Positions 25,764-49,869 of a stretch of DNA of 64,000 bases are shown piece by piece; positions within the stretch are counted from its first letter, which is position 1; each line of letters opens with the position of its first letter. The DNA comes from a virus (Duplodnaviria > Caudoviricetes). Below the pieces are notes generated by a model. It was not told the origin of the DNA. It did no database searches and worked only from the letters and a program-made list of their open reading frames with translations. The stretch is taken from positions 26,988 through 90,987 of IMG/VR virus record IMGVR_UViG_3300048502_000185. The stretch is one strand, 5' to 3'. The translations under genes were made by a program, and so were the position numbers.

Positions 25764-25785
25764 TGTTTTTTTTCTTTCATAGTAG

Positions 25786-30732: not shown

Positions 30733-30748
30733 TGCAATTCCTATACCA
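30733..30748 (-). promoter_or_regulatory. sigma54-type promoter
   Basis: TGGTATAGGAATTGCA (GG-N10-GC). Confidence 0.6.
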
Positions 30749-30787
30749 ACTACCCATAAAAGAAAAATTACAGTGTGGGCAAAATCG

Positions 30788-31100
30788 CCTGTACAGTAAG
30801 ATATCTAAGATTAAATATCCCATCAGAGAACTACTTAAAAAATACTGAGATCTCTTCTTCGGTCTCTTTCTCTTCTCCTCTCGGTTTGAAAAAGAAAAAA
30901 AAAACTAAAACTTAAAATATATCGGATTAATTTTCGACTCCTATACGCACGCGTGCGGCTCACCCATCCTTCCTTAGGTTTCCTTCCCAAACTTTTCGGG
31001 AGCTTCCCGCATCCAAGCTCAAGCATAACGGGCCACCTATCCTACAATCTAATTTAAACTTTGCGCGTTTCTAAAAACGGTCTGGCATAGCCAAACGACA
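30788..31100 (+). repeat. Dispersed non-coding element, copy A
   Basis: Shares AATACT(G/A)AGATCTCTTC..CTCCTCTCGGTT, CTATCCTACAATCTAATT and CATAGCC blocks with copies at 42.7-43.1 kb and (inverted) 55.6-56.0 kb. Confidence 0.75.
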
Positions 31101-31149
31101 GGAAGGTTTGTGTGAATTATATTCTTATGTCATAGCATCGACGATGGGT

Positions 31150-31338
31150 TCATCCCGCCGTTGGCGTTTCGCAAAGTTTGGCGTAGATTCTCCGACCGTT
31201 GTCGGTCAAAGTAGTATATGTAAGTCCATCACTCACATAGAACTTGGAGTTGTTTGCACACATTAGCGCACGAACTCGGTCTATGTGAGAGCCCGTAAGG
31301 TGATATGCGTCAACAATATCAAAGCGATTGAATCTCAT
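31150..31338 (-). CDS. Hypothetical protein (paralog of 28801 gene)
   Basis: See 28801. Confidence 0.7.
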   Translation of the reverse strand: MRFNRFDIVDAYHLTGSHIDRVRALMCANNSKFYVSDGLTYTTLTDNGRRIYAKLCETPTAG

Positions 31339-31353
31339 TTTTCATCTCTCCAA

Positions 31354-31599
31354 TTAAATCTTGCGATTATTCTTGCGATTTTGCCTGCGATTATGCAAAA
31401 CAATGGCATACTCTTTGGCGCTCCAAAGCGTATTGTATTTGGGGGCTAACATTGTTCTGGCTAACTCCCATGATTCGCGATAGCCTTGTGCAATGTAAGC
31501 CTTGAAGGTACTTTCGCCGTCCCATGTGTAAGCGTGGTCGCCATCCATATAGACGAGTGTCTCTTTGAAGTTTATTAGTTGTTCTAGACCTACGCTCAT
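31354..31599 (-). CDS. Hypothetical protein
   Basis: ORF in co-directional cluster. Confidence 0.6.
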   Translation of the reverse strand: MSVGLEQLINFKETLVYMDGDHAYTWDGESTFKAYIAQGYRESWELARTMLAPKYNTLWSAKEYAIVLHNRRQNRKNNRKI

Positions 31600-32144
31600 A
31601 ACTTATTACCTTTCAAGTAAGTTCGATGGGAACCTCAAGTATATCTAATCTATTAAACTTTATGTTATAAATCTACTTATATATTAGTCTACAACTTTGG
31701 AACCCAGCCAAGATCTCTTAGAAGAATATTGGCTAATTCATTCATACGATGACGAACATCCTTGTCTTCAGTTTGAGCAAACTCACTTAGTAGTAAGACT
31801 ATATCTTCAACACGAACATAGATAGTGCCGTTCGCACTAACGGTGCGTAATTTAATTACTTCATCTTTTACGATCATATGTTGGCCCTTTCAAGTAAGTT
31901 CGATGGGAATCTTTTATTGTTTATTAAAAATCTAAATCATGCCAAACATCTTTAACAAAAAAAAGCGTTCCGACATAAGTCGGAGACAATTCGGCTTTGG
32001 AAAACAACTTAACAGAATAAGTTTCCACGGTATTATAATCAGGTCCAGCCATACGCTTAAACACGATTGTCCCGCCCCCCGAAGGGAGTCATAACCCTAT
32101 CGCCAGTTTCAAACATCTTTGTTGTCATGTTAGCCTCTTGCTAT

Positions 32145-32510
32145 TTACAGCAAATTATTATTCTGATGGGAATCAATCATATCCGATATTTTCATCGAAA
32201 GCAGTTCGTCAACCTCATTGACCTCTGACACGTCATTGTCAGATGGGTAAAAGATATCCGAAGTATCATCCAAGACGCACAATGCAATCGCCTGGCGAAT
32301 CCACTTGAAAGCCCGAAAAGAATCCTCGCAAGCTTCCAGCAAACAATCATGCTCGGAAAGCTCATCCGTAAGAAAGAAGACTCGTTCGAGATCTTCCAGA
32401 CTCTGGAAGAAGCCGACGTTCTCGACTTCAATGATGGGAAAGATTGTCGTTCCAGATTCAGATTCAAGAATAGAGAAAGAAGTAAACTTGTGAAGGTTTG
32501 CAAAGCTCAT
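32145..32510 (-). CDS. Acidic hypothetical protein (paralog of 9805 gene)
   Basis: SLEDLERVFFLTDE. Confidence 0.7.
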   Translation of the reverse strand: MSFANLHKFTSFSILESESGTTIFPIIEVENVGFFQSLEDLERVFFLTDELSEHDCLLEACEDSFRAFKWIRQAIALCVLDDTSDIFYPSDNDVSEVNEVDELLSMKISDMIDSHQNNNLL

Positions 32511-32545
32511 TGTAATATCCTCTTACTATTATGAAAATAATATTA

Positions 32546-32779
32546 TTAGTCGATGGGAACATCGTTCAGGTCAAGATTATAAAGCAATTTGCCCACTCGT
32601 TCGGCACGAGTAGGATCATGTCTGACAAGCGCCGCCAACACATCATAAGCATGATTCAAAGTCCTACGCTGAACGGATGTCAGCTTGTCCTTACCAATCA
32701 AAAAAAGATCGTCAAGAACACGCTGAATATCTTGCTCAATGAATCGATCTAATGGAAGACGACGATTGTTATTGCTCAT
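32546..32779 (-). CDS. Hypothetical protein
   Basis: ORF with GGAG RBS. Confidence 0.6.
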   Translation of the reverse strand: MSNNNRRLPLDRFIEQDIQRVLDDLFLIGKDKLTSVQRRTLNHAYDVLAALVRHDPTRAERVGKLLYNLDLNDVPID

Positions 32780-33262
32780 TGTTTTTCTCCTGATTATATA
32801 AACGTTTATTGTTCCGATGGGAGGAGTGATTCCAGCAATATAAGTGCTTTATTCAATATCATGATTTGAGAATCAAATAAAGGTAGCGTATTATCCTCTA
32901 AAATAGATACAAGATCTCTAATCGAAGATTCGATCTCAGTTGATTTAGGTGTTATGATAATCGGTCTCATTATATTAGATCCTTTATTGCCAGATGGGTC
33001 TTATATATATTGTGTAATAATCTTTATTAAAGCAAACCCTTATATGGACCCGATGGGAAACATCTCGGACATTCGCGAAAAGATTCCTGATGACCTTCGT
33101 CGGAATGTTCGTTTTCTTTGCCTGCAATCTCAGCACAAGGTCCGCATAGATGACCAGTGCCACATGATGCCTCTTGCGTGGAACGCTTGCCGCAAACGCG
33201 GCAGATAACATTGGGCTGATTGCGCTTGCTAAACTTTATTTTGTTCATAACTATATAATCCT

Positions 33263-33514
33263 TTATTGCCCGATGGGCTTATCGTTAATAGCGAATGACT
33301 CAAGAAACTTTTCAGCTGCTTTATAGGCTGGCAAATCGCCTACTGGCAGCAAGCAAGCGATTTGAAACTTGTTTTCATCGAAGCGCGGGTTATCATTGCT
33401 AAAAAGCAAAATAAAGGCTTCAATAATTGAAGAGGTAATCATGCCAGTAGTACCTTCAGCACGACAGGTTTTAACAATCTCAGCAGCCTTATTGTAATCT
33501 TTCTTGGTCATCAT
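33263..33514 (-). CDS. Small hypothetical protein, family MTxKDY
   Basis: MTKKDYNKAA.IV...LFSNDNPRFD..F..AC, shared with 33560 and 41359. Confidence 0.75.
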   Translation of the reverse strand: MMTKKDYNKAAEIVKTCRAEGTTGMITSSIIEAFILLFSNDNPRFDENKFQIACLLPVGDLPAYKAAEKFLESFAINDKPIGQ

Positions 33515-33559
33515 GATGCACTTCCTTCATTAGGAATTAGAGTTTAATGCTCGATGGGT

Positions 33560-33805
33560 TTATCGCTTCTTATATGAAAGCGATGCTGCAACTTCGCGAG
33601 CAAGATTAATGTCAGTCTTAGGCATGCATGCCGCATCGAACCGAGCACAATCAAACTTCGGGTTATCGTTGCTAAACAGTTCAATAAAGCCCATTCTCAT
33701 CCAACGTGCGTCTTCCAATTGTTCGCTAGAACAAGAATTTACACAATATGCCCTAACAATCTTAGCAGCCTTATCGTAATCTTTCTTGGTCATCATGACG
33801 CACAT
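33560..33805 (-). CDS. Small hypothetical protein, family MTxKDY
   Basis: Tandem paralog of 33263. Confidence 0.75.
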   Translation of the reverse strand: MCVMMTKKDYDKAAKIVRAYCVNSCSSEQLEDARWMRMGFIELFSNDNPKFDCARFDAACMPKTDINLAREVAASLSYKKR

Positions 33806-33842
33806 CCTTCATTAGTAATTAATTTAGATTATCCGATGGGAA

Positions 33843-34418
33843 TTATTCCTTCGGACCGCAAGCAACGTCAGGAATATTCCTGAGTTCGTTATATTCGTTC
33901 ACATCACCGCACTGTATGTCCAATGTAGCGCACCCTTGATCCTTGCACATTACATTCCCAGCGCCCAAGTGCTGTAAGCCCAGTGCATGACCCAACTCAT
34001 GCCTGGTATCCTGTACATCAAAGTCGGTTCCAGATGGGACGTAAGAATTGCCCCAACCCTGATAATCGCAATAATAAGGATCCTTTGCTGCTATACTTTT
34101 ATGCCAGAAAGTAATTCCAATGGTATTGGGATTTTCCGAAATGGACTTTATGTCGGCAAGGCTCATTGGATGTATGCTGATGCAATCAATATCCTCGTCA
34201 TCGCATGCCATGTTTAGAACCGTGATATTAAAACCTACATTGGTCTTACTTGACCAATCGTCAAGAGCACCAACTACATCGGAGATATTGTCGCCAAAAG
34301 CAGGGTCAACGAACACATTGTAATTCGTGGGATAAATTCTACCCCCAGCGCACCCAATTGACAACGAACCAATGCCAGAAAGAAGCAAGCAACCCACTGT
34401 TAAACTTAATGCCTTCAT
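33843..34418 (-). CDS. Matrixin-like (metzincin) metalloprotease lipoprotein
   Basis: Lipobox LSIGC; HELGHALGLQH followed by Met-turn NVM. Confidence 0.85.
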   Translation of the reverse strand: MKALSLTVGCLLLSGIGSLSIGCAGGRIYPTNYNVFVDPAFGDNISDVVGALDDWSSKTNVGFNITVLNMACDDEDIDCISIHPMSLADIKSISENPNTIGITFWHKSIAAKDPYYCDYQGWGNSYVPSGTDFDVQDTRHELGHALGLQHLGAGNVMCKDQGCATLDIQCGDVNEYNELRNIPDVACGPKE

Positions 34419-34772
34419 TATCAAACCTCTTGATAACAATCGGCTTTTGATATTCGATGGGAAGCATGTGAGAGATTGTAGGCAAACTACCTATTCCTAC
34501 CGCATCTATTAGAGTGCGGTTAGGTTCCCTTACATCAAAACAATAGTAAGTATTATGCCCGTTATGAGCATATTGAAAGACGGCAAGATATCTCCCATTG
34601 TGGGATGTGTAGTCCAAAGTGTTAAGAATTTTTTCCCACATGTTTCCTTTCGAGAAAGTTATTGAAAGATATCCTACATGTGTCCTTACATTCCCACCAA
34701 GGAACGGTAAATGTAAGCAAACCATCACGCAGGCTTTAGTAATTCAAACTACATACCCGATGGGAACATCGG

Positions 34773-35078
34773 TTAGCCTCTAACGAAACCATGTTCCCTA
34801 AGCCCTTCTTTAGTAATGGGATTCGGCAGATCGTTAAAAAAAGTAACGAGGGCTTCTCTTACCATACTTGCGTCATCTTTGGTTACCTTCACATCATATT
34901 CCATAGAAGTATCATCGGCGCCGCCAACGTGCAATCGAAACATACATGTCTCACCGTTAGCATCAATGTATTCATACATCTTGCACTCAACGCAATTACG
35001 CGGAAAGTTAGGGCTCCAATCATCCGACGTTGGATACATGAAACGCTTGAGTAGGAGAATGTCGTTTTTCTTTTTCAT
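34773..35078 (-). CDS. Conserved phage hypothetical protein
   Basis: PTSDDWSPNF...V.GADD..M. Confidence 0.65.
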   Translation of the reverse strand: MKKKNDILLLKRFMYPTSDDWSPNFPRNCVECKMYEYIDANGETCMFRLHVGGADDTSMEYDVKVTKDDASMVREALVTFFNDLPNPITKEGLREHGFVRG

Positions 35079-35573
35079 CGCTTGGGCTTCCTGATTAACT
35101 TCCCGAACTTATAACTATACTTGACTTTTTCAGTATCAACTAAAACTGCCAATTCCTTTTGAACGGTTTCATAGGCTTCGAAAACAGCCCTCCAGCGCTT
35201 TACGGTATCGCTGTCTACATCGGCTTCCCAACCCCTCCCTTTGGACACAAGAATAAATCCAACATCATCCCCAGTAAACGGCGCGTCAATATAAATTTTC
35301 ATAATTATCTCCTTGGTTTCTAACACGATGGGAACATGCCAAGGTATACCGTCCTTGGCTTCCCCGTATTGGGGCTGCATCAAAGCAGGAAAGATGCGTG
35401 CCGATGGGAAGGTGCTTGTTGGCGCGAAAGAAGATGGCAGCAATCTTGCGTCATTGCAAAAATCAAACCAACTTCCCCAATAAAATCAAATGCTTACATT
35501 GCAGGCAAATGTAATCAAAGGATAAAAAATGGGGGACATATGTCCCCCACGTTAGGGCACGCAGTATTCAAAA

Positions 35574-36044
35574 TCATCGCACCACTTCGGGACAAGGGAT
35601 AATCGCCCTAATCAAGTCGCACATGGTTACTTTGGCGGAGAAGGAGTTGTCGTCGTAAAATTCAGCGACGACAAAGTGGGTGATGTAGTCGGCGGCATAG
35701 TGGACACCAGCGGCAAAGTGGGCGGCGTGGTCGGCGTAGTCGATGCTGTTGTCGATGCTGACCTGCTCAGTCGAAGGCTCAGCACGACACCATGCTTCTG
35801 CGGTTTCGATCGCGATAAGAGCCTCTGGTCTTGTGGCGAAAGGGATAACCGTCCTAGCGCATGCGCATGCGGCGAGAACGATATCTCGCCGACTAACGCC
35901 GGTACGTCCAGCCAACCAGAAAAGCCAAGCGGGCCTAGTGCATGCAGCGTACGCTTCGGAAAGCGTAGAATAATCCGAGGCAAACTCGATTGCCTCGTCG
36001 CAGGCTTTCAGGGATTTTAGATACTTGATATGCGTAGCAGTCAT
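35574..36044 (-). CDS. Ala-rich hypothetical protein, tandem copy 1
   Basis: ACD.AIEFA..Y..L..AYAACTRP.WLFWLAG; duplicate of the 36099 gene. Confidence 0.8.
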   Translation of the reverse strand: MTATHIKYLKSLKACDEAIEFASDYSTLSEAYAACTRPAWLFWLAGRTGVSRRDIVLAACACARTVIPFATRPEALIAIETAEAWCRAEPSTEQVSIDNSIDYADHAAHFAAGVHYAADYITHFVVAEFYDDNSFSAKVTMCDLIRAIIPCPEVVR

Positions 36045-36098
36045 TGTAATGTTCTTCCTTTATATAGTTTCTAATTGAAGACCTGATGGGTTAGCTAA

Positions 36099-36629
36099 TC
36101 ACTCAACGCACACCACTTCGGGACAAGGGATAATCGCCCTAATCAAGTCGCACATGTTCACACGGGCGTCGGCGTTGGCTGCGTCGGCGGCGTCGGCGGC
36201 GTCGACGGCGTCGGCGGCATAGGTAGCGGCGGCGGCGCGGGCGGCGTAGGCGGCGCGGGCGGCGTAGACGGCGGCAGCGCGGGCGTAGACGGCGGCAGAG
36301 GCGGCGGCAGAGGCGGCGTCGACGGCGCCGTAGGCGCGGACGCGCACTTGTTCAATCGTCGCCTCGCCACGACACCATGCTTCTGCCGTTTCGATCGCGA
36401 TGAGGGCTTCTGGTCCTGTGGCGAACGGTAAAGCAGTTCTAGCACATGCGCATGCGGCGAGAACGATGTCCTGGCGACTAACGCCGGTATGTCCCGCCAA
36501 CCAGAAAAGCCAATCTGGCCTAGTGCACGCAGCGTACGCGTCTGAAAGAGACGAATAATCCGAGGCAAACTCGATTGCAGGGTCGCAGGCGCCCAGGTAC
36601 TGAAGGTAGGTGATATGCGTAGCAGTCAT
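36099..36629 (-). CDS. Ala-rich hypothetical protein, tandem copy 2
   Basis: As copy 1, with an expanded GC-rich (AAYAARA)n tract. Confidence 0.8.
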   Translation of the reverse strand: MTATHITYLQYLGACDPAIEFASDYSSLSDAYAACTRPDWLFWLAGHTGVSRQDIVLAACACARTALPFATGPEALIAIETAEAWCRGEATIEQVRVRAYGAVDAASAAASAAVYARAAAVYAARAAYAARAAAATYAADAVDAADAADAANADARVNMCDLIRAIIPCPEVVCVE

Positions 36630-36690
36630 TGTTATTCTCTTTCTTTATATAGTTTCTAATTGAAGACCTGATGGGTTAGCTAATCACGAC

Positions 36691-36706
36691 TACAAAAGCC
36701 GTGCCA
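36691..36706 (-). promoter_or_regulatory. sigma54-like promoter (degenerate -12)
   Basis: TGGCACGGCTTTTGTA. Confidence 0.45.
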
Positions 36707-37021
36707 TTCATTCGCAATGCTCTGGTGAACGCTTCGGCATGATAAGACGTATAGAAAACTCGAACGGACTTTCCGAAAGAAACATAATAGTGGGTCATTG
36801 TCATTCTCTTTCTGATGTTAAATCTCGATGGGCTACACCACAAATATTTTTTATGGCTTCGTCTTGACGATCACGAAACGCAGCATATCCTACCTTATCA
36901 ATAATCTGATATCGAATCTCGTTATATACTCTTAAGCTAGGCTGAAGTAGCGCATCATATATTCTTTTCACTTCAGGAGTCATTGTATGTTCTTTCTTTA
37001 TATCTTAGTTTCTGATGGGAT

Positions 37022-37306
37022 TCAGCGAACCGAACACGTACCAGGCATCTTGATCCATTCTGGAATCCTATGGCCCGATCGTGCAGTAAGATTGAACTGA
37101 CAACCGCAATCGCCAGCATGGCTCACCAAGCGCGGGATAACTCGAGTCTCGAAACATGCCTCGCAAAAGTAATCAACCGTGCGCCACTTGGCGGCAATAT
37201 ATTCGCCCCACGCAAAGACGCTTGTCTTCTTGACGCCACAAGGGCAGGTCGTTTTGACAATTGGCTGAAACCATTCGTTGTGAACTCGAATCTTTGACTT
37301 GGACAT
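37022..37306 (-). CDS. Cys-rich hypothetical Zn-binding protein
   Basis: CPCG, CEAC, CGC motifs. Confidence 0.65.
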   Translation of the reverse strand: MSKSKIRVHNEWFQPIVKTTCPCGVKKTSVFAWGEYIAAKWRTVDYFCEACFETRVIPRLVSHAGDCGCQFNLTARSGHRIPEWIKMPGTCSVR

Positions 37307-37701
37307 ATTGAGCCTCTTTCCAAACTTAGCAGAGAATTAGTTTCTGATGGGACTCTAAAACGAAACTTCCTTCATCTCAAAAACTCGAACGGCATCGGCT
37401 ATAAGATTATAATATCGCACAAGCTCAGCAAGGCTATCGGAACGAAGAGCGACTTGTAATTGACTGGTAATAACCTTATGTTCGCCCGTTTCGTCATTGA
37501 CCTCGCAGTATAAGATATGTGCGAGATTCTGGATGGGGTCATGGTAGATTGTAATCGTTTTCATGTTTAGGAATCCTCGTTTATATACGATGGGAAAATT
37601 ATGCCGAGTCGCTATGATAATGGGGGACTCGTCTTTATATTGAAACAGTTAGGTTTCTGATGGGAGATTACAAGATGGCTTGGCACTTATATTGCAGTTA
37701 T

Positions 37702-37717
37702 AGCAAAAACCAAGCCA
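37702..37717 (-). promoter_or_regulatory. sigma54-type promoter
   Basis: TGGCTTGGTTTTTGCT. Confidence 0.65.
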
Positions 37718-37726
37718 GACACCAAC

Positions 37727-37763
37727 AAAAGAAAAAAGTAGGAGAGACATCTACCTCTCCTAC
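37727..37763 (-). terminator. Intrinsic terminator
   Basis: GTAGGAGAG/CTCTCCTAC stem followed by a T-tract on the minus strand. Confidence 0.65.
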
Positions 37764-37773
37764 CTTCTATGTT

Positions 37774-38259
37774 TTAGACCCAGTTATATTTAAGATAGTT
37801 AATATTATCTAAGAAAAAAGTAGGAGAGACATCTACCTCTCCTACCCAGTTATATTTAAGATAGTTAATATTATCTACGCACACAACCCTACCACTCGCA
37901 ATGGCTCTGGCTAGTAATGCTTCTACGTGATCTTTTGCGCCCTTCAGAAAGGAAAGCTCGCCAGTAGCATGATCATTACTACATTGATTGATAGCAGAGA
38001 AAATGTCCTCGTCAACAGCGATGGCAACATAGCTCCAATCTTGGGGCTCCCAATATTGGAGCTCCCAATCTTGCGACTCGATGGGCTTCTCTGGCTCTTG
38101 TGCTTTCTGGTCTCTGACCTTCTGTAGGTGGGAACACACCACATCGATGGGCTTCTCGGGTTTTTGTGCTTTCTTTACAGCCTTGAGCGATTCAGCAAAG
38201 GCAATAATCTCGTCAACGGTTCCAGTTACAGTGATATTCATTGTCTTATCGCCTTTCAT
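37774..38259 (-). CDS. Hypothetical protein with duplicated C-terminus
   Basis: DNINYLKYNWV occurs twice because of a local tandem duplication. Confidence 0.6.
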   Translation of the reverse strand: MKGDKTMNITVTGTVDEIIAFAESLKAVKKAQKPEKPIDVVCSHLQKVRDQKAQEPEKPIESQDWELQYWEPQDWSYVAIAVDEDIFSAINQCSNDHATGELSFLKGAKDHVEALLARAIASGRVVCVDNINYLKYNWVGEVDVSPTFFLDNINYLKYNWV

Positions 38260-38544
38260 ATAAGGATTATGGATGGGATTGCGGTATTATTAAAGCATCT
38301 GAAAAAAGCGCAACACAACCGCAAAGTCATCTGGACTTGTATCGCCAGTCTTCCAAGTCTTATGGCTCATCCCGATGGGAAGAACATCCAGCAATTTATA
38401 ACCATTGGGTCCGTTCAAGCGGTTAAGGATATGGATTACTGAAGTGATCCATTCATTTTCAGAATACCCAGAACTATTCTTTTCGGCTTCCATTTTATTT
38501 ATCCTATCTTCATGATTAGATTCAGTTTATTAGCCGATGGGAAC

Positions 38545-38943: not shown

Positions 38944-39005
38944 GTATCTCCCGCCTTTATGTTTGCCGATGGGTTTTGAATTTACGGCATATAGATTGCA
39001 GACAT

Positions 39006-39021
39006 AGCAAAACCCGTGCCA
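39006..39021 (-). promoter_or_regulatory. sigma54-type promoter (full consensus)
   Basis: TGGCACGGGTTTTGCT = TGGCACG-N4-TTGCW. Confidence 0.8.
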
Positions 39022-39034
39022 ACCAACTTTAAAA

Positions 39035-39060
39035 CAAAAAGAAAGGGGTTATGCCCCCTT
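39035..39060 (-). terminator. Intrinsic terminator
   Basis: AAGGGG/CCCCTT stem plus T-tract. Confidence 0.6.
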
Positions 39061-39327
39061 CCTTTTACTTCCATAGCCAACCTGTTTCAATCCAATAAAG
39101 AATCGTTGCAACGAATTGCTCGGGGGACTTATCCGCCCAAAAGGCATCGTTTGCCATTCCCATAGGAAGCTTTTCATTTATAAGGCAATCAGCAGGAATA
39201 GTGGAACTTTCCCACTCATCAAGAACTTTATAAGAAACGCCGACATTGTTTAGTCTTTCAACGACTTCCGTCAACCAATCGTTGATTGTATAACCCAAAC
39301 CGTTCTTCATGATATTCTCCCTATATG

Positions 39328-39948: not shown

Positions 39949-39989
39949 GATTAATCTCCCCGAGCACATGTCGATGGGTTAGAAGATAT

Positions 39990-40412: not shown

Positions 40413-40454
40413 GATAGATCTCCTATGTATATATTCTTTACAAATCCCGATGGG

Positions 40455-40652: not shown

Positions 40653-40696
40653 CTTTCTTATATAGTTATGAATGAAACTGTTTTGCTGATGGGACT

Positions 40697-40972: not shown

Positions 40973-41165
40973 TAACTACTTTTTGCTGATGGGGACTTGC
41001 GATCCGTGGCGTGTGAAGGGGAACTAGGATGGTATTATGATAGCCGCTAGGCTATCGTCTAATCCACCTTCACACGCCAAGGTCTCTATCGCCAACTATA
41101 TTGGGGGATATCAAACTGATGGGAACTCTTGCCTGCATATACGCGTTGGTATTGATCTTGCAATT

Positions 41166-41181
41166 AGCAAAACCCATGCCA
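41166..41181 (-). promoter_or_regulatory. sigma54-type promoter
   Basis: TGGCATGGGTTTTGCT. Confidence 0.78.
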
Positions 41182-41196
41182 CCCAGTTCAAAGAAT

Positions 41197-41234
41197 AAAA
41201 AAAAGAGCCAGCCTAACATTCGGTAGGCTGGCTC
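41197..41234 (-). terminator. Intrinsic terminator
   Basis: 11-bp stem GAGCCAGCCTA/TAGGCTGGCTC plus T8. Confidence 0.8.
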
Positions 41235-41358
41235 CTTAGGGATTACCGCGAATAATCCCTAGTCGGTAAGCCGAACGAAGCATCCCGACTTCCCAAGTAA
41301 GTGCGTCCCTTACCTGGGGGTATGTATACCATGCGAAACTATGCCCCGATGGGAACCC

Positions 41359-41559: not shown

Positions 41560-41608
41560 GGGGAACCTTCTTTCATTAGCAGTAGATTGTTTACGCGATG
41601 GGATGAGC

Positions 41609-41980: not shown

Positions 41981-42188
41981 GTTGTTCCGCTTGAGCTACG
42001 CTAACACAATGTGGGTTATTAGGACCGTGCCAAGCCATGAAGCATGCTCCCCTAGCAGTAGGGAATGGACCGATTACGGCACCGTAAAGATGCCCGTGTG
42101 ATTCTTCCGTGGGAGATTCAGCCGACTGGAAAACTTGCCAGTCCCCTGCTTTGCAGCCAACCCAATATCGCTTGCGACTTGCTTTCAT
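41958..42188 (-). CDS. Hypothetical protein
   Basis: YGAVIGPF.T.RGA.FMA..G.NNPHC. Confidence 0.6.
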   Translation of the reverse strand: MKASRKRYWVGCKAGDWQVFQSAESPTEESHGHLYGAVIGPFPTARGACFMAWHGPNNPHCVSVAQAEQLGKECFA

Positions 42189-42513
42189 GTTCTTACCCCT
42201 ACCTTCTATTATTGGACAATCTTTATTATCCGATGGGACTTATACCGACTTCAGATATTCCGCAAGAGCTTCCAACTTGGCTCGTGCCCTATTCTGAATC
42301 TGACGCTGGATGGGATCCATGACATACTGTCCGACAAGACATACATCGTCAAGAGCAGACTTGCTTTGCAAGAGAGCTTCGCGAACCGTAGCAGAAAGAA
42401 CCTTTTCAGCATTCATTGGGGAACCTCGATTCTAATTATAGGGACAGTTTTATTACCTGATGGGACTTGGCAAAGGGGAAGGTCACCAGTGGGTTGGTTC
42501 CAAGATTGCAATT

Positions 42514-42529
42514 AGCAAAAACTATGCCG
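42514..42529 (-). promoter_or_regulatory. sigma54-type promoter
   Basis: CGGCATAGTTTTTGCT. Confidence 0.65.
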
Positions 42530-42574
42530 CCCCAATAATTCCAAAACAATGTAGACAAAAGTGGGAAAATGGAA

Positions 42575-42670
42575 CTGTACCGAAGATAACGGAAGATAAC
42601 TGAATACACTGAATACAATGTAAGCAAAGGTAAGACAACGTAAGTAAAGGTAAGACAACGGAAGTACCGT
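42575..42670 (+). repeat. Degenerate ~10-bp tandem repeats
   Basis: cgaagataac ggaagataac tgaatacac tgaatacaat gtaagcaaag gtaagacaac gtaagtaaag gtaagacaac. Confidence 0.6.
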
Positions 42671-42719
42671 AGATTAATTAAATTAAATTCTTCCCATCCC
42701 GACACTAGTAGAGTCATTA

Positions 42720-43190
42720 GAGATCTTAATCTTAGCGTCCCGTCTCGTTCTCGGATCTCTTCTCGGTTCTTTCTCGGTCTCTTCTCGTTCTCGTCTCGGC
42801 TTGAAAAAGAAAAAAATAAGATTAAAGATGGGTCTTCTCGGTTTTCTTTCTTCTTTGGTTCTTTCTTCTTTCTTTTGCTGGACAATTGCTGACGCCCTGC
42901 CCCCACATCATCCCACATCCGAACACCCGTAGGAGTTCCTATCACACATTGGCATCCACTATCCCACATGAGCTCAACCGTAGTAAGCGGATAACTAGGC
43001 CATCTATCCTACAATCTAATTCTAAATCTCCCATGTGGGCAAACCGCGCCAACATAGCCAAGCCTCGCAGAGATTGACAAGAATATAATTACCACGTAAT
43101 AGCGGGCTCGATGGGCTTGTCTCGCCCGGAACCTCCCTGCAAAGTCTGAACCTAAGTCTTGTTTTGCCCAAATGACCATACATGACCATG
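42720..43190 (+). repeat. Dispersed non-coding element, copy B
   Basis: See copy A; also carries AATGACCATACATGACCATG at ~43170. Confidence 0.75.
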
Positions 43191-43385
43191 TGTCGATGGG
43201 TTTGGAATCTGTTTTGATAAGGTGGCTCGGATATTGCAGATACAGCAATAAGCATGCTAACCGCCTAAAAAACTAAACAATTACCAACACTTACAGGTGG
43301 GCAAGTGTATTCGGGGCAAAACTCTGGGAGAAGCACCTAGCCTCTCCCACAAGTCTTACATGCTCTTACGTGCCCTCACATGCTC

Positions 43386-44081
43386 TTACATCGATGCGAG
43401 TTCATCCTTGATGTGTGCAAGCCGCTCACTCTCGATGGCGGCAAGCTGACCCATGTAATTCGCGCTCACACCGTCGCCGACTTCCGTGAACACACTTGCT
43501 TGTCGGTTGAAGTCCAGAATTGCCTCAACTGTAAGCACTTCGCGAGCCTTGAGATCGGCAAACTTGCGCGACATGGGGGTAGGGGTTCCACCGACGAACG
43601 TTGAATACACTGGCTTGACCGAACCGACAACCGTACCGGGTTCCCCACGAACCGCCCGATGAGCTTTCATATTGGCATTCATCTCTTGGGTTCCGTGCAG
43701 TTCTGCCATATTGTAGCCGATGTAAGATGCAATCGCATTGATTCGTTCGCCGCGGGTAACCGAGCGACGCATTGCGACCAGGAAACCTTTTGCGTCAATC
43801 GTGCCAGCGGTCGGCAGAGCCACGCCCAGGGTCATCGGGCGAGCATCGCGAATCGACGTTGCTTCAGCCTTGACGACAATCGGGGCAACTTTCGTACCCT
43901 TTGGTGTTTTCGGCATCTTGGGGGCTTTCGTAACACTACGCACGACCTTGACAAGAGCCGGAGTCGTCGAACCGAGTGTGTGACATGCCGGGGTAGGCTG
44001 GTCATACGACGCGACCAGTTTCGCAATAAGCGATTCAACTTCCGTGGCAGAAACTTCGGTCGAAACATTGAGGGTATTCAT
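43386..44081 (-). CDS. Hypothetical protein
   Basis: 231-aa ORF, GC-rich codon usage, AAGAAAGAGA RBS. Confidence 0.75.
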   Translation of the reverse strand: MNTLNVSTEVSATEVESLIAKLVASYDQPTPACHTLGSTTPALVKVVRSVTKAPKMPKTPKGTKVAPIVVKAEATSIRDARPMTLGVALPTAGTIDAKGFLVAMRRSVTRGERINAIASYIGYNMAELHGTQEMNANMKAHRAVRGEPGTVVGSVKPVYSTFVGGTPTPMSRKFADLKAREVLTVEAILDFNRQASVFTEVGDGVSANYMGQLAAIESERLAHIKDELASM

Positions 44082-44150
44082 TGTGAATCTCTTTCTTGAT
44101 TGTTTCTTTTGGGGGACAATATTAGCGAATGATCTCGACCTGATGGGAGT

Positions 44151-44417
44151 TCAGTGGGTTCGCAAAAACTTTCGCGCTGCGGTAAGGTTATCGAAGGTTG
44201 TCCACATACCGGGCGGAGAGTAACTATCGTATACATGATACACACCGTGTTTCATTATAAGACTTTTGTTTCCCTTGTATTCAACGTACCCACATCGGAA
44301 CGCATACTTCGTATAGCTCTTGTCAGCATTAAAAAACTGACAGTGTCGAGGTGCGACTCCGTCGCAGCAAGAAGGACATGTATGTTTTCTGCCGCCAATG
44401 TGGCTCAATGTGATCAT
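44151..44417 (-). CDS. Hypothetical Zn-binding protein
   Basis: CPSC...FRCGY. Confidence 0.65.
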   Translation of the reverse strand: MITLSHIGGRKHTCPSCCDGVAPRHCQFFNADKSYTKYAFRCGYVEYKGNKSLIMKHGVYHVYDSYSPPGMWTTFDNLTAARKFLRTH

Positions 44418-44988
44418 GATGAATCTCTTTTCTTATGTAATTCTTGGGGACAATTATAGCGCAGTCTTATTACCTGATGGGTCAAAAAAACAGTTTGCCC
44501 ACAACAATGACAAGGGAAGCCACTAGGATTCCCCAAAACATAACCGCCCACATTGTATCTGAAAAGTCCATTGGGACAGGAAGATCACGAAACCCGATGG
44601 GATCAAAAGAGAATCTCGATTAGTAGCATCACGACCACAAGAGACGTACATGCCACACACAAGAGTCCAATTAGCCACATCTTCTCAAGATGGCCTAGTG
44701 TAAGTCCTGCACATCGCTGGCGAGTCACAACGCCTCACCAAAAAACTCGAATTCCACAAGAGAATTCCGAATGTCTCGCAGATGGGAAAGCCGCCTAGCT
44801 CGGTTGGCTTGGAAGTCGGCTAGCATGAGGGTTCGGAGCGACTCGCATCGTGAGCATACTTCGAAGGTCACAATCGGCGGGTGCAAAAGATTGATATGCA
44901 TGGTGTCTAACCTCGTGTTATTATTAGGTAATTAGTTGCTGATGGGAACTGGGTCCGGTTAGGAAGCCTTGGACCTGATATTGCAGAT

Positions 44989-45004
44989 AGCAAGAAGCAA
45001 GCCA
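44989..45004 (-). promoter_or_regulatory. sigma54-type promoter
   Basis: TGGCTTGCTTCTTGCT. Confidence 0.65.
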
Positions 45005-45084
45005 AGCCCTAACACCCTAGAATTATCCTTTGGATAATTGATGAAAACAAGAGTTTTCATCCTACAGGTAGGTTCAAGCGCTAT

Positions 45085-45111
45085 AAAAACAAGGGAGCGA
45101 ACTAGGCTCCC
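45085..45111 (-). terminator. Intrinsic terminator
   Basis: GGGAGC/GCTCCC stem plus TTGTTTTT. Confidence 0.65.
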
Positions 45112-45329
45112 CTGTAAGATTAGGTAGGTCTATCGTGCCGCAATCAGTGCCTTGACAAGCGCACACTGAGCGAGATTCTTATTGGCCATGTTCAGAGCCG
45201 ATGGGCGATCAAGCCACTCAATGTAAGACTCATTGAACCGGAGGGTAAAGTACTTCACGAAGGTCGAATTCTTTTGGCTTTTCATCTTATTACCTCAATT
45301 ATTAGATACTAAACTAAAACTGATGGGAA

Positions 45330-45566
45330 TTAGATTCCCAGTGCGAGCGTTGCCTCTTCGGCTGTAAGAATGATATCCGTCTCGCAGTTAATGTAGGCAT
45401 GACGACCAGTGGAAGGCTGATAGCAATACATCAGCTTGTAATTATTACGTGTGGTAAAAGGAACTTCGGAACCTCCGCTAGCAGGTATCCACGCACCTTG
45501 TGAGTTCTCATAATCTTTCTTGTCAAGCAATTCTGCAAGGGTCATATCGGGAATCTCCTCAATCAT
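45330..45566 (-). CDS. Hypothetical protein (near-duplicate of 29077 gene)
   Basis: See 29077. Confidence 0.75.
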   Translation of the reverse strand: MIEEIPDMTLAELLDKKDYENSQGAWIPASGGSEVPFTTRNNYKLMYCYQPSTGRHAYINCETDIILTAEEATLALGI

Positions 45567-45594
45567 ATCAAAGGATTAGAATCTCGATGGGCGA

Positions 45595-45849
45595 TCAAGA
45601 GCCCGGATACAAGACATGTTCGTAGTTACCAAGGAAAAGTTTCGCACCCTTGCTGACAATGTAGGCGGATCCAATGTTAGACCACAACACATAGTAAACC
45701 CGATGCCAGCGCTTATTCACCTGAATCATCATTGAAGAGGGCAGTTTGCTACCGTAGCCCGTGCGGGAATAATTCATTGGAGTCTTAGTTTGCTTCTTGT
45801 CGGTAACCGTGGTAGGGTCGAGATAGGTAATCATGGTTGGGAACCTCAA
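45595..45849 (-). CDS. Conserved phage hypothetical protein
   Basis: TGYGSKLPS..M......RVY...WSNIGSAYI. Confidence 0.7.
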   Translation of the reverse strand: MRFPTMITYLDPTTVTDKKQTKTPMNYSRTGYGSKLPSSMMIQVNKRWHRVYYVLWSNIGSAYIVSKGAKLFLGNYEHVLYPGS

Positions 45850-45881
45850 TTATGAGCAATATCAATTACTTGATGGGATAA

Positions 45882-46511
45882 TCAGTTGCTGACGTCATCA
45901 TTGCTGCTACAAGAATTGAACTGACAGTGCCAAGTAACCGATCCGTGCTCTTGCGGTTTATCAAAGCACGTAACTTGCATGACGGCGGAAACATTGACAA
46001 GAACCGTGCCCGACATCTGAGCAGCCCAGTTTACTGCCGAATCTCCACCAGGCTTACTTGTAAGTTCGGTGGTAATAACTACCGTTGTAGTGAATCCACC
46101 ATAGCAGGCCTTAGCTGCATCAACAGAATCACTTAGCACCGTTATTGCTGCTTTTTCTGCAACGATGGGGTCAACGGCAGACCTAATCGTTGTGCGAGAC
46201 TCGTGCCATACATGGTCGCCCTTGTGAGACAAGCACCTAACATTCAACTTCGCGAGAACATTGAAACCCTGGTCTGATTGACTAATCGTGGTAAGCTTGT
46301 ATGACGACGAAACTGCTTTACCACCTTGATGGGTTGTGCAAGCATCCGAGGCGTTCTGTTGTGCGACATCCAACGCCATGTGGGTTGCCGGATTATACTC
46401 AGCAGATATTCCAGTGCCACTGTATTCTTCGTTCCAAGTATTCGAAGCAAGAGCTGAAGTCGCACAAGTCAGGATAGCGGCAACGGCGAACACTGTCGGG
46501 ATGGCTTTCAT
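45882..46511 (-). CDS. Secreted protein, two-domain member of a family with the 49112 and 50045 genes
   Basis: Signal peptide; W..EY.G.G.S...A...A...C...V......C. Confidence 0.7.
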   Translation of the reverse strand: MKAIPTVFAVAAILTCATSALASNTWNEEYSGTGISAEYNPATHMALDVAQQNASDACTTHQGGKAVSSSYKLTTISQSDQGFNVLAKLNVRCLSHKGDHVWHESRTTIRSAVDPIVAEKAAITVLSDSVDAAKACYGGFTTTVVITTELTSKPGGDSAVNWAAQMSGTVLVNVSAVMQVTCFDKPQEHGSVTWHCQFNSCSSNDDVSN

Positions 46512-47029
46512 TGTCGGGAACCTCATGATATGATTGAGATACTTGGCTCGATGGGTTTTAGAACCGACAATGGCACTTAGTATCCTTAGGACTTGCAGGC
46601 CAGCCGCTCGCAAACCTACGCTTTTCTTCTGCCCAGTCTGCCCGAAGAGCTCTCCACATATGGAAAGTGTCATCAAAGGACACACGGTTTTCGACTGCCA
46701 TAAACCATCCCGCTATAAAAAGAGTGGGAATCTCCTCATCAGACGACGAAACCGAATCAACCGGCGGACACGTAAACTTTTCGCTGCTCATCTTGAATAC
46801 CTCAATTATGTTGGGGATGCTTGGCTCGATGGGTTTCTGTCAGCCATTGACGTCAAGGTCGGCACGCCAAGAGTTTTTATAGTCTTTGGCACGCTTGTCT
46901 TGCTTTGCTTTGAAGGTCTGGGCTTTGCCAGTGCCATTGACAATCATGGCATAGGCGACGCTGTTACGAGGGACTGGCTTCTGTTTGCGTTTCATGGTAG
47001 TTATGATAACCTTTTATTCACTGATGGGA

Positions 47030-47248
47030 TCAGGCCTTAGTATAATAATCGAACCAAGATCCAGACCGACTTGTGCGACGTTTGCTCTCATCCGAGGTAC
47101 AGAATCTGCTAGAGGTATTAATGCTGTTACAATGTAGTTGGGCAACCAGCAAAGAGACATTCCAAAAGATAGTCCTGCGACATCCCGAACGGTGAAAAAG
47201 CCTAATGATATTATAGGTTTGCATGATATCCTCGTTTATTGACGTCAA
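47030..47248 (-). CDS. Small hypothetical protein (paralog of 25298 gene)
   Basis: See 25298. Confidence 0.7.
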   Translation of the reverse strand: MTSINEDIMQTYNIIRLFHRSGCRRTIFWNVSLLVAQLHCNSINTSSRFCTSDESKRRTSRSGSWFDYYTKA

Positions 47249-47310
47249 AGTAATGCCTGATGGGAAGCAGCTTGGGTCTTATTGGTGCCTGGGACCAGAT
47301 CTTGATATAT

Positions 47311-47326
47311 TGCACAACCCATGCCA
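47311..47326 (-). promoter_or_regulatory. sigma54-type promoter
   Basis: TGGCATGGGTTGTGCA. Confidence 0.7.
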
Positions 47327-47340
47327 AGTGCAAGATATAT

Positions 47341-47366
47341 AAAAAAGAGCCCCTACTACGGGGCCC
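47341..47366 (-). terminator. Intrinsic terminator
   Basis: GCCCC-GTAGTA-GGGGC-TC-T6; identical copy at 48121. Confidence 0.75.
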
Positions 47367-47401
47367 TTATCACACATGTCCGAACCTAACCTACAAGAAG
47401 C

Positions 47402-47986
47402 TTATTCACCCACGTCTCTATCGTGTTTCGGTGACCCGAAACGGGCGGAATTGTGGGCAGAGGTAGCCACGTCAATCAAGAATTCCACACACTTCTCCTT
47501 GCTATTCTTGACATAGGAGACCTTGAGATACAAGTGATCACAATGTAAGCCTTGTTCGGTGTGACTGTCAGCCTCGACTAGCAAACTACTCGTTCCCGCA
47601 TCAAGATTCACATCGAACCCCACCGTGGCATCCTTCGGCAGAAGTGAGAGAATGTTAACAAGACGCTCACGAGGACAACCAGTAAGATACCAGAAACCAC
47701 TGGTAGGACGGAAACCTTCATCGTATCGCATGAAAGTCAGCCCAGTAAGGCTTTGCTCCCCCGTACGACGACTCGTATGTCCGTTGCTCACATAGCCCGC
47801 GATGCCTTCCAAGGTGCGCGCCTCTTTATCGGCACGGTCTTTGCGAGCACGAATCTCGAAGATAAAAGAGTCACTGTAGGATTCACGGTCCAAGGTAGGC
47901 TTCCCATGGAGACTCAGCGCATCATACCCATACTTGGCCACATCGAGCAATTGCTTCGCCGTCGTTTTACCGTGGAGATCGTTCAC
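47402..47986 (-). CDS. Hypothetical protein
   Basis: 194-aa ORF with AAGGA RBS. Confidence 0.7.
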   Translation of the reverse strand: MNDLHGKTTAKQLLDVAKYGYDALSLHGKPTLDRESYSDSFIFEIRARKDRADKEARTLEGIAGYVSNGHTSRRTGEQSLTGLTFMRYDEGFRPTSGFWYLTGCPRERLVNILSLLPKDATVGFDVNLDAGTSSLLVEADSHTEQGLHCDHLYLKVSYVKNSKEKCVEFLIDVATSAHNSARFGSPKHDRDVGE

Positions 47987-48089
47987 TTTGATATCCTTCT
48001 TTCTTGTTTTGCCGCTTATAATATAGGAAAATTATTCCTGATGGGAGCTTGGTCTGGTTCTGGTGCCTTGGGACCAGATCTTGATATAT

Positions 48090-48105
48090 TGCATAACCCA
48101 TGCCA
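48090..48105 (-). promoter_or_regulatory. sigma54-type promoter
   Basis: TGGCATGGGTTATGCA. Confidence 0.7.
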
Positions 48106-48120
48106 AGTGCAAGTCCCATA

Positions 48121-48147
48121 AAAAAGAGCCCCTACTACGGGGCCCTT
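48121..48147 (-). terminator. Intrinsic terminator
   Basis: Copy of the 47341 terminator. Confidence 0.75.
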
Positions 48148-48160
48148 ATCTTACATGTTC

Positions 48161-48373
48161 CTACTTGACCTTGACAACCTTACCGTTCACCATGGTCACG
48201 GTAGCATACCACTTGTGCGGCTCGGGATAATGTGGGCCCGAGATAAACTCTTGACCATCACGGACTGGCGCACCCATTCCGGGGGCATAGATCGTGACTT
48301 CTTTGCCAGCGGCAACGGCTTCTTTGAGGGCCTTCTTGGACTTGAAGTTGATATCGGTGTACATTGGGAACAT
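48161..48373 (-). CDS. Conserved small phage protein
   Basis: NFKSKKALKEAVAAG...GPHYPEPHKWYA. Confidence 0.75.
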   Translation of the reverse strand: MFPMYTDINFKSKKALKEAVAAGKEVTIYAPGMGAPVRDGQEFISGPHYPEPHKWYATVTMVNGKVVKVK

Positions 48374-48430
48374 CCTTTCGGGGAGGGGAACAATTATGGG
48401 GTAAAGTTAGGTCAGGATGGGAAGATTGGG

Positions 48431-48643
48431 TTAGTAGGGCAGATTAAAGTTAGGATCTTCTTGATCCCTAAAAGTGCCATCATTCCACTTATATACCTCG
48501 ACATGAAAGGATATCGTTATCTGCCCACGATAGTTTACATTGTCGTAAACGGTGCAATTCGGGTCCTTCGCAGCGAGCCAAGCCTTTTGATCGCCTAGAA
48601 ACAAGTTGTCTAATTCCTTTTGATTCTTGTATAGAATGTTCAT
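48431..48643 (-). CDS. Hypothetical protein
   Basis: GAGG RBS; post-stop TCCCATC. Confidence 0.6.
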   Translation of the reverse strand: MNILYKNQKELDNLFLGDQKAWLAAKDPNCTVYDNVNYRGQITISFHVEVYKWNDGTFRDQEDPNFNLPY

Positions 48644-49111
48644 CTTAGAACCTCAATTATGTGGGTGCATATACCTATCATAACACGCCACGTGGCACGG
48701 TCAAGTCCCCTCGTCACTTTTTTTGGCAGACTCGCCAGTTACCGACGAGAGCGAATGCGCGATCGAGGTCGACCCAGTCCGCGTTACGCAGCACGTCTCG
48801 TGACGCCTCGGGAAGGTCGGGAAGGCCTCCTCCCTCCAAGGCGGTGTGAAAAGAAGGCTTATCGAGTCTGCCCAGCGCGCGAAGTGTTCTCAGCGTCCCA
48901 AGAACCTCGCGGTCTTGAAGCACCACCTTCATCGCCCGCAGTGCAGTCAGTTCCGCCCGTCGTGTCGTCGTCGTCTTCATATAATTCAAAAAACGTAGAT
49001 TGGAAACGGGAGTTTCCAATATTATCCCGAAGGGATAATCTAGGGGTAAAAAGTATATTAGATCAGGAGTAAGTTTTTCACATACTCCTGATTACTTTTT
49101 TATCTATTATC

Positions 49112-49411
49112 CTACTTCGTGCAGGTCATCTTGGCAGCGATGACAACCGTGTAGCCGTTGTCGTCAAGTGTTACCACGTTATATCCCTGATGTAAGATAA
49201 GCTTTCCACCGTCGCACAATGTAGTCGCGGCGAATCTTTCGCCTAAGTCTTCCGTGGCCATGGCAGTTGCCTCGTCAAGGTCGGTCGAAGTTCCAGCACC
49301 AGCATAATCCTGGTGAAACACTCTGGTAGTGAAGTCTGCCGAAACCGGGGAAGACGTCCCGAGAATAGGAACCGTGGCAAGAAGGGACGAGATAATGATC
49401 AATGCTTTCAT
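49112..49411 (-). CDS. Secreted protein (family with 45882 and 50045)
   Basis: Signal peptide; F.QDY.G.G.S...A...C...C. Confidence 0.7.
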   Translation of the reverse strand: MKALIIISSLLATVPILGTSSPVSADFTTRVFHQDYAGAGTSTDLDEATAMATEDLGERFAATTLCDGGKLILHQGYNVVTLDDNGYTVVIAAKMTCTK

Positions 49412-49502
49412 TGGGATAGCCTCAATTAGGAGGTATAAAGTAAAACCTGATGGGAGTTCAAAGGGAATAAAAAGAAGCCTGTTGGCCAGAAGATTGCTGT
49501 AT

Positions 49503-49518
49503 AGCAAAGATCATGCCG
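49503..49518 (-). promoter_or_regulatory. sigma54-type promoter
   Basis: CGGCATGATCTTTGCT. Confidence 0.7.
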
Positions 49519-49532
49519 CATACAATGTACAT

Positions 49533-49559
49533 AAAAAAAAAGGCCCCAATTAAGGGGCC
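49533..49559 (-). terminator. Intrinsic terminator
   Basis: GGCCCC/GGGGCC stem plus T9. Confidence 0.75.
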
Positions 49560-49581
49560 CAGATTATTCATCCTCAGACCT

Positions 49582-49776
49582 TCACGGTCTCCAGCAAGGT
49601 GTAAGTATAAGTTGCTGGCCAATAGCCGCGTCGATCTTCTGGATATCCAGCTCGAGCTTACGCCCCACGTTCAACGGGCAGCGGTACAGGTTCGCGTCCA
49701 AGAGGGCCTGCACCTTAATCGCCCGCAGTTCAGTCAGTTGCGCCCGTCGTGCCGTCGTCATTGTCATGGTGGTCAT
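49582..49776 (-). CDS. Small hypothetical protein
   Basis: MTT..RRA.LTELRA.K start also seen within the 48714..49019 ORF. Confidence 0.55.
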   Translation of the reverse strand: MTTMTMTTARRAQLTELRAIKVQALLDANLYRCPLNVGRKLELDIQKIDAAIGQQLILTPCWRP

Positions 49777-49853
49777 ATATATTATATAAAAGTAAAACCT
49801 GATGGGAAGTTAGGGTATTGGGATAAAAAGGATGGCTTGAAAGTTGCAAAGAA

Positions 49854-49869
49854 AGCAAGAATTATACCA
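49854..49869 (-). promoter_or_regulatory. sigma54-type promoter
   Basis: TGGTATAATTCTTGCT. Confidence 0.6.

Follow-up and report, generated by a model that had tools for sequence, protein, structure and literature searches.

Candidate sigma-54-class promoters, mostly doubled head-on, in terminator-promoter cassettes of an uncultured large phage

The virus record IMGVR_UViG_3300048502_000185 of IMG/VR is a linear contig of 90,987 bp, and because CheckV puts this contig at 20% complete, the full genome is probably about 450 kb in size. We analyzed the 64,000 nucleotides from base 26,988 to base 90,987 of the record (the window), in which a 24-kb minus-strand block (window 26–51 kb) of small genes without assigned function holds about 14 short operons, headed by sites that resemble the −24/−12 promoters of bacterial sigma-54 (RpoN). 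We consider it probable, at roughly 60%, that these sites are sigma-54-class promoters used by the sigma-54 RNA polymerase of the host and set in terminator-promoter cassettes. An earlier note, made from the letters of this DNA, had proposed that the region is run from about a dozen sigma-54 promoters. The exact spacing, the extended consensus, the position of the sites past terminators and ahead of genes, and their conservation in related phages make the sequence evidence for promoters of this type strong, and to that extent the proposal stands; the canonical arrangement of an enhancer-binding protein (EBP) with an upstream activating sequence (UAS) is not seen.

Sites are labeled here by the coordinate of their 5′ T on the minus strand. 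All 12 minus-strand sites that had been listed hold a 16–17-mer of the form (Y)TGGCAY-N5-TTGCW, and 10 of them have both GG and GC; the two that had been called degenerate are so, with AG for GG at 43244 (43259 in our labeling) and TTGT for TTGC at 36691. To these can be added three good copies, 26487, 35470 and 50555, and a remnant at 31932–31945. The 14 good copies give the logo TGGCAYGGnTTTTGCTA, with T at −26 (position by position, T G G C A T G G k T T T T G C T/A). All 14 have GC and 13 have GG (site 43259 has AG), and the N10 spacing is invariant. Compared with the bacterial consensus YTGGCACGrNNNTTGCW, the 14 left boxes match a mean of 11.5 of the 14 specified positions, and site 39021 matches every one. 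The likeness to bacterial sigma-54 promoters such as glnAp2 and pspA thus comprises GG and GC exactly 10 nt apart, Y before TGG, YGr after GGCA and W after TTGC, and the phage sites stand at the starts of transcription units in the orientation of the genes.

Matches to at least 10 of the 12 specified positions of TGGCACG-N4-TTGCW were counted, with 100 dinucleotide shuffles as control. The minus strand holds 26 and the plus strand 10, against 5.7 ± 2.4 (maximum 14) in the shuffles; at 11 or more positions, 4 were observed against 0.29. The counts show both enrichment over the shuffles and a strand bias. Sigma-70-like matches (38, against 28.4 ± 4.7 in shuffles) scarcely exceed chance and coincide with one unit only, 50555. 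The sites thus stand at the places that require promoters, and at these no other promoter can be seen. Two other promoter types were considered and rejected: the sites do not share the elements of a sigma-70 reading (TTGGCA-N16-TGCAAT), and a Bacteroidota-type promoter is ruled out by the absence of TAnnTTTG and by gene starts of the Shine-Dalgarno kind.

The sites are intergenic and co-oriented with the genes, as had been claimed. They lie between minus-strand genes, and site 42529 overlaps only the end of a 177-aa open reading frame (ORF), a doubtful gene with a coding score of 0.00. The coding score is based on codon usage and was trained on the confident minus-strand genes; most minus-strand ORFs score 0.1–0.29, and the plus-strand ORFs of the block score at most 0.11 each and mostly below 0.08. 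Since the plus-strand ORFs score as non-coding, all genes of the block are co-oriented with the sites. Nearly all genes of the window are short, on the minus strand and preceded by Shine-Dalgarno sites, and almost none has a Pfam or PHROG family match. The block with the sigma-54-type sites has a G+C content of 42–49%, compared with 28–40% in the rest. The step at 50–51 kb, from about 47% to about 30–36%, is sharp and forms the upstream edge of the block, and the DNA around 50.5–50.7 kb is non-coding, C-rich and of low complexity.

Strong intrinsic terminators, which are concentrated in the block, stand directly upstream of nine sites, with the T-run 9–14 nt away or, in two cases, about 55–85 nt away. 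On the other side of the box, the start is predicted about 12 nt past the GC, within a conserved TGCAAT or immediately behind it. Mostly 44–130 nt separate the predicted start from the first ATG, and four leaders are longer by the automatic call. The leaders hold a second conserved element, TCCCATCRG, whose first copy follows the −12 GC by 34–51 nt at 13 of the 14 good sites (minus strand, at 26433, 30694, 35408, 37664, 38973, 41123, 42464, 43200, 44946, 47264, 48045, 49454 and 49806); none follows 50555. The element also precedes nearly every other gene, usually just past a stop codon and 25–45 nt ahead of the next ATG (for example at 4667, 27867, 38973 and 49454). Counted as T-CCCATC-R-G-G, it is locked in orientation: the window has 105 minus-strand and 2 plus-strand copies, the contig 113 and 2. 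No −10-like element at a fixed phase was found downstream of it in the window. It might act at the RNA level, as a leader or processing site, or as DNA in the manner of a stoperator.

The earlier note had also seen a second GCAA shortly after the TTGC of many sites. This TTGC..GCAA dyad is real in 12 of the 14 sites and had been under-read, as the plus strand there carries an entire GG-N10-GC box in inverted orientation (TGGCACTTATATTGCA at 37681 is one such box). The −12 elements of the two boxes are 5–7 nt apart, compared with 4–8 nt in the dyads found elsewhere (below). Where present, the inverted box matches about 10.7 of the 14 consensus positions, compared with the mean of 11.5 for the left box. 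Sites 47326 and 48105, which belong to near-identical cassettes, have no inverted box. A hairpin of RNA or DNA was ruled out: the spacers are not complementary, and the 35–37-mer dyads have little tendency to fold when single-stranded (−1.6 to −4.8 kcal/mol, z-scores mostly near 0). We read the dyad as one of protein recognition and not as a hairpin.

The individual units, all on the minus strand and in window coordinates, are as follows. The module at 26451–26529 joins a hairpin and T-run (26502–26529) to a dyad (26451–26487) with left box TGGCATGGTTTGTGCTA and inverted plus-strand box CGGCACCAATATTGCA; it lies outside the range that had been covered before. The dyad at 30713–30748 (TGGTATAGGAATTGCA, inverted TGGTCTATAACTTGCT) has T-rich DNA upstream, in which no strong hairpin was called. 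The degenerate remnant at 31932–31945 (TTGGCATGATTTAG) is without a GC box and lies 12 nt past a terminator T-run. At 35435–35550, in a unit that had been missed, a terminator (35529–35550) and T-run precede the dyad 35435–35470 (TGGTTTGATTTTTGCA / TGGCAGCAATCTTGCG). The degenerate single box at 36691–36706 (TGGCACGGCTTTTGTA, with the TTGT mentioned above) has neither an inverted box nor a terminator. The terminator-dyad at 37681–37768 comprises the terminator 37733–37768 and the dyad 37681–37717 (TGGCTTGGTTTTTGCT / TGGCACTTATATTGCA). The terminator hairpin here, GGTAGGAGAGGTAGATGTCTCTCCTAC with its T-run, occurs twice, at 37818–37847 and 37733–37768, 80 nt apart and with no gene between. The unit at 38985–39066 has the terminator 39037–39066, which reads terminator-like on the plus strand too, and the dyad 38985–39021 with the left box TTGGCACGGGTTTTGCT of full consensus.

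Further along, the terminator-dyad at 41147–41237 comprises the terminator 41202–41237 and the dyad 41147–41181 (TGGCATGGGTTTTGCT / TGGTATTGATCTTGCA). The dyad at 42495–42529 (CGGCATAGTTTTTGCT / TGGTTCCAAGATTGCA) is without a terminator and overlaps the 3′ end of the doubtful 177-aa ORF. In the dyad at 43223–43259 the left box is weakened (TAGCATGCTTATTGCT, AG for GG) and the inverted box TGGCTCGGATATTGCA is the better one. At 44970–45115 the terminator (45089–45115) is followed after about 85 nt by the dyad 44970–45004 (TGGCTTGCTTCTTGCT / TGGACCTGATATTGCA). Two units have a terminator and a single box, 47310–47368 (terminator 47345–47368, box TGGCATGGGTTGTGCA) and 48089–48147 (terminator 48124–48147, box TGGCATGGGTTATGCA); in the former a TTGCAC..GTGCAA repeat straddles the spacer. 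These two share about 100 nearly identical nucleotides of terminator, promoter and leader (47260–47368 and 48040–48147), 780 bp apart, and the pair is a possible substrate for cassette recombination. The terminator-dyad at 49483–49560 (terminator 49541–49560, dyad 49483–49518, CGGCATGATCTTTGCT / TGGCCAGAAGATTGCT) is followed by the dyads at 49833–49869 (TGGTATAATTCTTGCT / TGGCTTGAAAGTTGCA) and 50519–50555 (TGGCATCCTTCTTGCA / TGGTATGGATTGTGCA). The last of these, which the previous list did not contain, lies at the edge of the G+C-richer block and resembles a dyad of the related contig G009.

Relatives of the phage were found by local tblastn of the contig proteins against all fetched loci. Three of them, G007 (353,765 bp, 79% complete), G008 (128,541 bp) and G009 (118,039 bp), had been fetched solely for carrying the dyad, and their proteins are 29–57% identical to those of window genes. 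Each holds a cluster of TGGCAY-N5-TTGCW words (19, 9 and 8 words, respectively), dyads among them, compared with 0 for a reversed control pattern. TCCCATCR co-localizes with these clusters in the same orientation and is not carried elsewhere in the relatives. The first 4.4 kb of G009 repeat the layout of the window, with a sigma-54-like dyad, 36–46 nt, TCCCATCG (TCCCATCGCCTAACGG), 20–35 nt and ATG, and the leader motif TCCCATCGCCTAACGG stands ahead of every small gene. The clusters and leader motif in all three contigs indicate that the promoter-plus-leader system is conserved in this clade; it is expanded in the present contig, whose window has 14 candidate promoters and 105 copies of the leader motif. 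Homologues of window genes lie in a different order beside the clusters of the relatives. Two proteins are conserved beside these clusters, one of 225 aa that resembles a zincin protease and one of 201 aa without a match; neither gave a transcription-related match. Three dyads with an 88-nt period were seen at G007:77,537–77,746.

The dyad is not confined to this clade. The pattern TGGCAY-N5-TTGC-N4-9-GCAA-N5-RTGCCA matched at least 120 viral stretches, and its chance rate, by our own estimate about 2 × 10^-11 per base, is far too low to account for them. Among the viral matches listed, the dyad spacers pair at 0–2 of 5 positions, which is the chance level, and at the free positions of both arms TGG is preceded by Y in 74%, TGGCAY is followed by R in 96% (by G in 62%) and then by another R in 74%, and TTGC is followed by W in 96%. 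Among the viral contigs listed, 23 of 53 dyads lie at divergent gene junctions, compared with a baseline of 15%; such a preference is expected of a promoter that would fire two ways. Arrays in the viral contigs hold extra single boxes aimed at downstream genes. Arrays of six sigma-54-consensus boxes, three of which are dyads, with a 47-nt period occur in L001, L002, L003 and L007 (for example L002:7081–7292), in a divergent control region of small uncultured phages. In L005 (IMGVR_UViG_3300045988_054291), which is complete at 12,810 bp and too small to carry an EBP, perfect sigma-54-consensus boxes stand in tandem at positions 63 and 121 of both inverted terminal repeats and point inward. In a dyad-bearing marine contig, thymidylate synthase alone is common with roseophages, and a blast of one array against isolated phages gave nothing useful. 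In viral contigs, the combined pattern TTTGCTA..TCCCATCRG gave no more than chance matches.

A stricter pattern, closer to the window sites, had 1 bacterial match in 596 Gb, compared with 8 viral matches. The bacterial matches to the dyad are not a clean comparison because they are mostly a longer repeat of saprophytic Leptospira together with true hairpins. That repeat (L346, L378, L342, L400 and many small contigs) is more than 100 nt long, recurs every 0.9–1.7 kb and has as its core two head-on TGGCAT-N5-CTTGC boxes separated by 4 nt; its sequence is unrelated to that of this phage.

Sigma-54 is the one bacterial transcription system that strictly needs an ATP-driven activator. The statement that the window has no EBP gene holds for the whole contig, in which no Sigma54_activat (PF00158), Sigma54_DBD or Sigma54_CBD domain was detected. 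A Pfam scan of the 148 contig ORFs found no sigma factor, polymerase subunit, EBP or regulator among the 25 of 40 matched families listed. PF00158 is likewise absent from G007, G008, G009 and five other dyad-bearing phages; no sigma-54 DNA-binding or core-binding domain was found in the three relatives, and no EBP in two complete dyad-bearing phages of 12.8 kb and 42 kb. The position usually taken by an enhancer is filled here by the end of the preceding gene and its terminator. With no EBP domain and no common upstream enhancer found, the phage DNA available gives no sign of the canonical EBP-plus-UAS arrangement.

The hint of a myxobacterial host in the earlier note is not supported, the G+C of the contig being 28–49%. 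The one host lead is a methylase (17128–17955) whose best bacterial relatives, at 58–67% identity, are in Planctomycetota and Polyangiaceae. These have a far higher G+C than the phage (about 40%), and for that reason they were not taken as the host. Host inference through the DUF6745 family, which is virus-only, and through an FtsK-like protein was uninformative.

A unit would be read in the following way. The intrinsic terminator of the preceding unit would be followed after 9–14 nt by TGGCAYGGnTTTTGCTA, at which the host sigma-54 holoenzyme would bind; transcription would start about 12 nt past the GC and proceed through a leader with TCCCATCRG at about +22 to +39 and a Shine-Dalgarno site to the ATG. 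With the second, head-on box of 12 of the 14 units, the same holoenzyme could dock both ways, and in this phage it would meet genes in the minus-strand direction only. The motif and its statistics, its position in the gene map, the dyad, the lack of hairpin potential and the conservation in related and unrelated phage contigs are observations, whereas sigma-54 binding, the start site and activation are inferred. Since neither an EBP gene nor a common upstream enhancer was found, the activator might be non-canonical, or else a factor of host or phage might act from solution or by way of the downstream box.

Several observations weigh against host sigma-54 promoters. The paired boxes of a dyad score nearly alike, the left one being ahead at 7 sites, behind at 3 and level at 4, which a symmetric DNA-binding protein would fit too. 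The regions from −230 to −30, the usual enhancer zone, share no k-mer beyond the terminator T-runs, and neither the contig nor G007 (79% complete) nor the two complete small phages yielded an EBP or a sigma-54 domain. One relative, G001 (252 kb, with an FtsK-like protein 65% identical), has neither sigma-54-like sites nor the leader motif. Finally, the scan of metagenomes recovered one copy of 3.1 kb, 99% identical and with two promoters unchanged, which is not significant and offers no informative promoter variation.

Near equality of the arms is also the starting point for a different explanation, in which a symmetric DNA-binding protein of the phage uses the 35–37-bp dyad as its operator or docking site. 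A dimer or tetramer would contact four GCA/TGC boxes one helical turn apart and control or mark the borders of the cassettes, and the likeness to sigma-54 would be convergence or mimicry. The boxes do lie about 10–11 bp apart, both arms are conserved nearly alike, phased arrays with periods of 47 or 88 nt exist elsewhere, and the lack of an EBP and an enhancer would be no difficulty. We nevertheless think it unlikely, for in more than 100 viral contigs the free positions of both arms follow the extended sigma-54 consensus, the inner spacing of 4–8 nt is unusual for a rigid dimer site, and partnerless boxes oriented with the genes occur (47326 and 48105, the arrays of L002, the terminal repeats of L005). 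Moreover, no other promoter is visible at the operon starts, and no regulator gene was detected among the families listed. Giant phages often encode their own transcription factors, and about 80% of this genome is missing. A phage-encoded factor with sigma-54-like specificity, such as a divergent sigma factor or polymerase cofactor, might therefore be encoded in the missing part; it would make the sigma-54 and EBPs of the host unneeded and explain the lack of both EBP and enhancer. This seems improbable to us, as the specificity equals that of cellular sigma-54 base for base, the relatives, including the 354 kb of G007, have no sigma-54 DNA-binding or core-binding domain, and in the complete phages that share the boxes (12.8 kb and 42 kb) such a factor either would not fit or is not in evidence.

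It is just as improbable that the units are mainly recombination modules for shuffling small gene cassettes and that they are conserved by recombination and not by selection on each promoter. The near-identical cassettes at 47310–47368 and 48089–48147, the reordered homologues beside the clusters of the relatives and the richness of the block in unknown genes would fit such modules. However, apart from that one pair the units share their boxes and not their flanks, so they are not recent copies. Promoter function is in any case compatible with recombination: in the promoter-early stem-loop (PeSL) cassettes of T4-type phages, which join a promoter to a stem-loop terminator, both elements are active (Arbiol et al. 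2010, PMC2839356). Promoters for host sigma-54 polymerase remain our preferred interpretation of the sites.

Compared with the bacterial sigma-54 promoters that they resemble, the sites here are phage-borne and dense, about 14 in 24 kb. They have no enhancer at −80 to −150, since a terminator fills −60 to −32, and no EBP gene in the available phage DNA; most are fused head-on to an inverted box, and a conserved TGCAAT lies at the predicted start. The resemblance to PeSL cassettes concerns architecture. Both are small, repeated units of strong promoter and stem-loop terminator, set in a plastic region among short, non-essential genes without known function, with hints of cassette shuffling between relatives, and nine terminator-promoter modules are present in this block of family-less genes. 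PeSL promoters are sigma-70-like, whereas those here are of sigma-54 type and mostly palindromic; and the possible signs of recombination between the units here are one near-identical cassette pair and the altered gene order in relatives. Dyad operators of phage repressors and the stoperators of cluster A mycobacteriophages are also short protein-binding sites repeated between genes. The sigma-54-like sites share the dyad symmetry and TCCCATCRG the locked orientation, but the former have the specificity of a sigma factor, a variable inner spacing and no evident repressor gene. The stoperator analogy applies to the TCCCATCRG motif and not to the sigma-54-like boxes.

To our knowledge, phage programs have been described as run by sigma-70-type factors or by phage polymerases, and the literature searched contained no account of phage operons transcribed from sigma-54 promoters or of head-on pairs of sigma-54 boxes. 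About 14 operons with no activator or enhancer in sight would mean either a dependence on host signaling, with infection tied to host physiology, or a sigma-54 activation of an unknown kind. The head-on dyad, with its preference for divergent junctions and its presence in at least 120 viral contigs, would be a compact two-way promoter. More tentatively, this clade of phages of about 450 kb and many unrelated uncultured phages may use head-on sigma-54 boxes as self-contained promoters without a canonical AAA+ EBP or an upstream enhancer, a possibility that we hold to be speculative but worth stating. If true, sigma-54 closed complexes would be opened in a new manner, either by an activator of a new kind or with the help of the inverted box and the TCCCATCR leader.

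Isolated phages gave no megablast match to the block, and a homologue search with one block protein recovered its own cluster alone. The sole Rfam match is a tRNA-Leu(CAA) at 25785–25868 on the minus strand, about 600 nt downstream of site 26487 and in the same orientation. Outside the block, a large family of paralogous repeat proteins, built of WYLNG..HREDGPA units, is encoded at 5.7–9.5, 21–22 and 51–58 kb of the window and at 1–27 kb of the contig. Six ORFs of this family match DUF6745 of Pfam, and their nearest Atlas clusters are almost entirely viral. Another contig ORF matches a Cas12f1-like TNB domain (TnpB-like) with E = 2e-21, and further ORFs match pentapeptide repeats, FGE-sulfatase, GH16 and Laminin_G_3.

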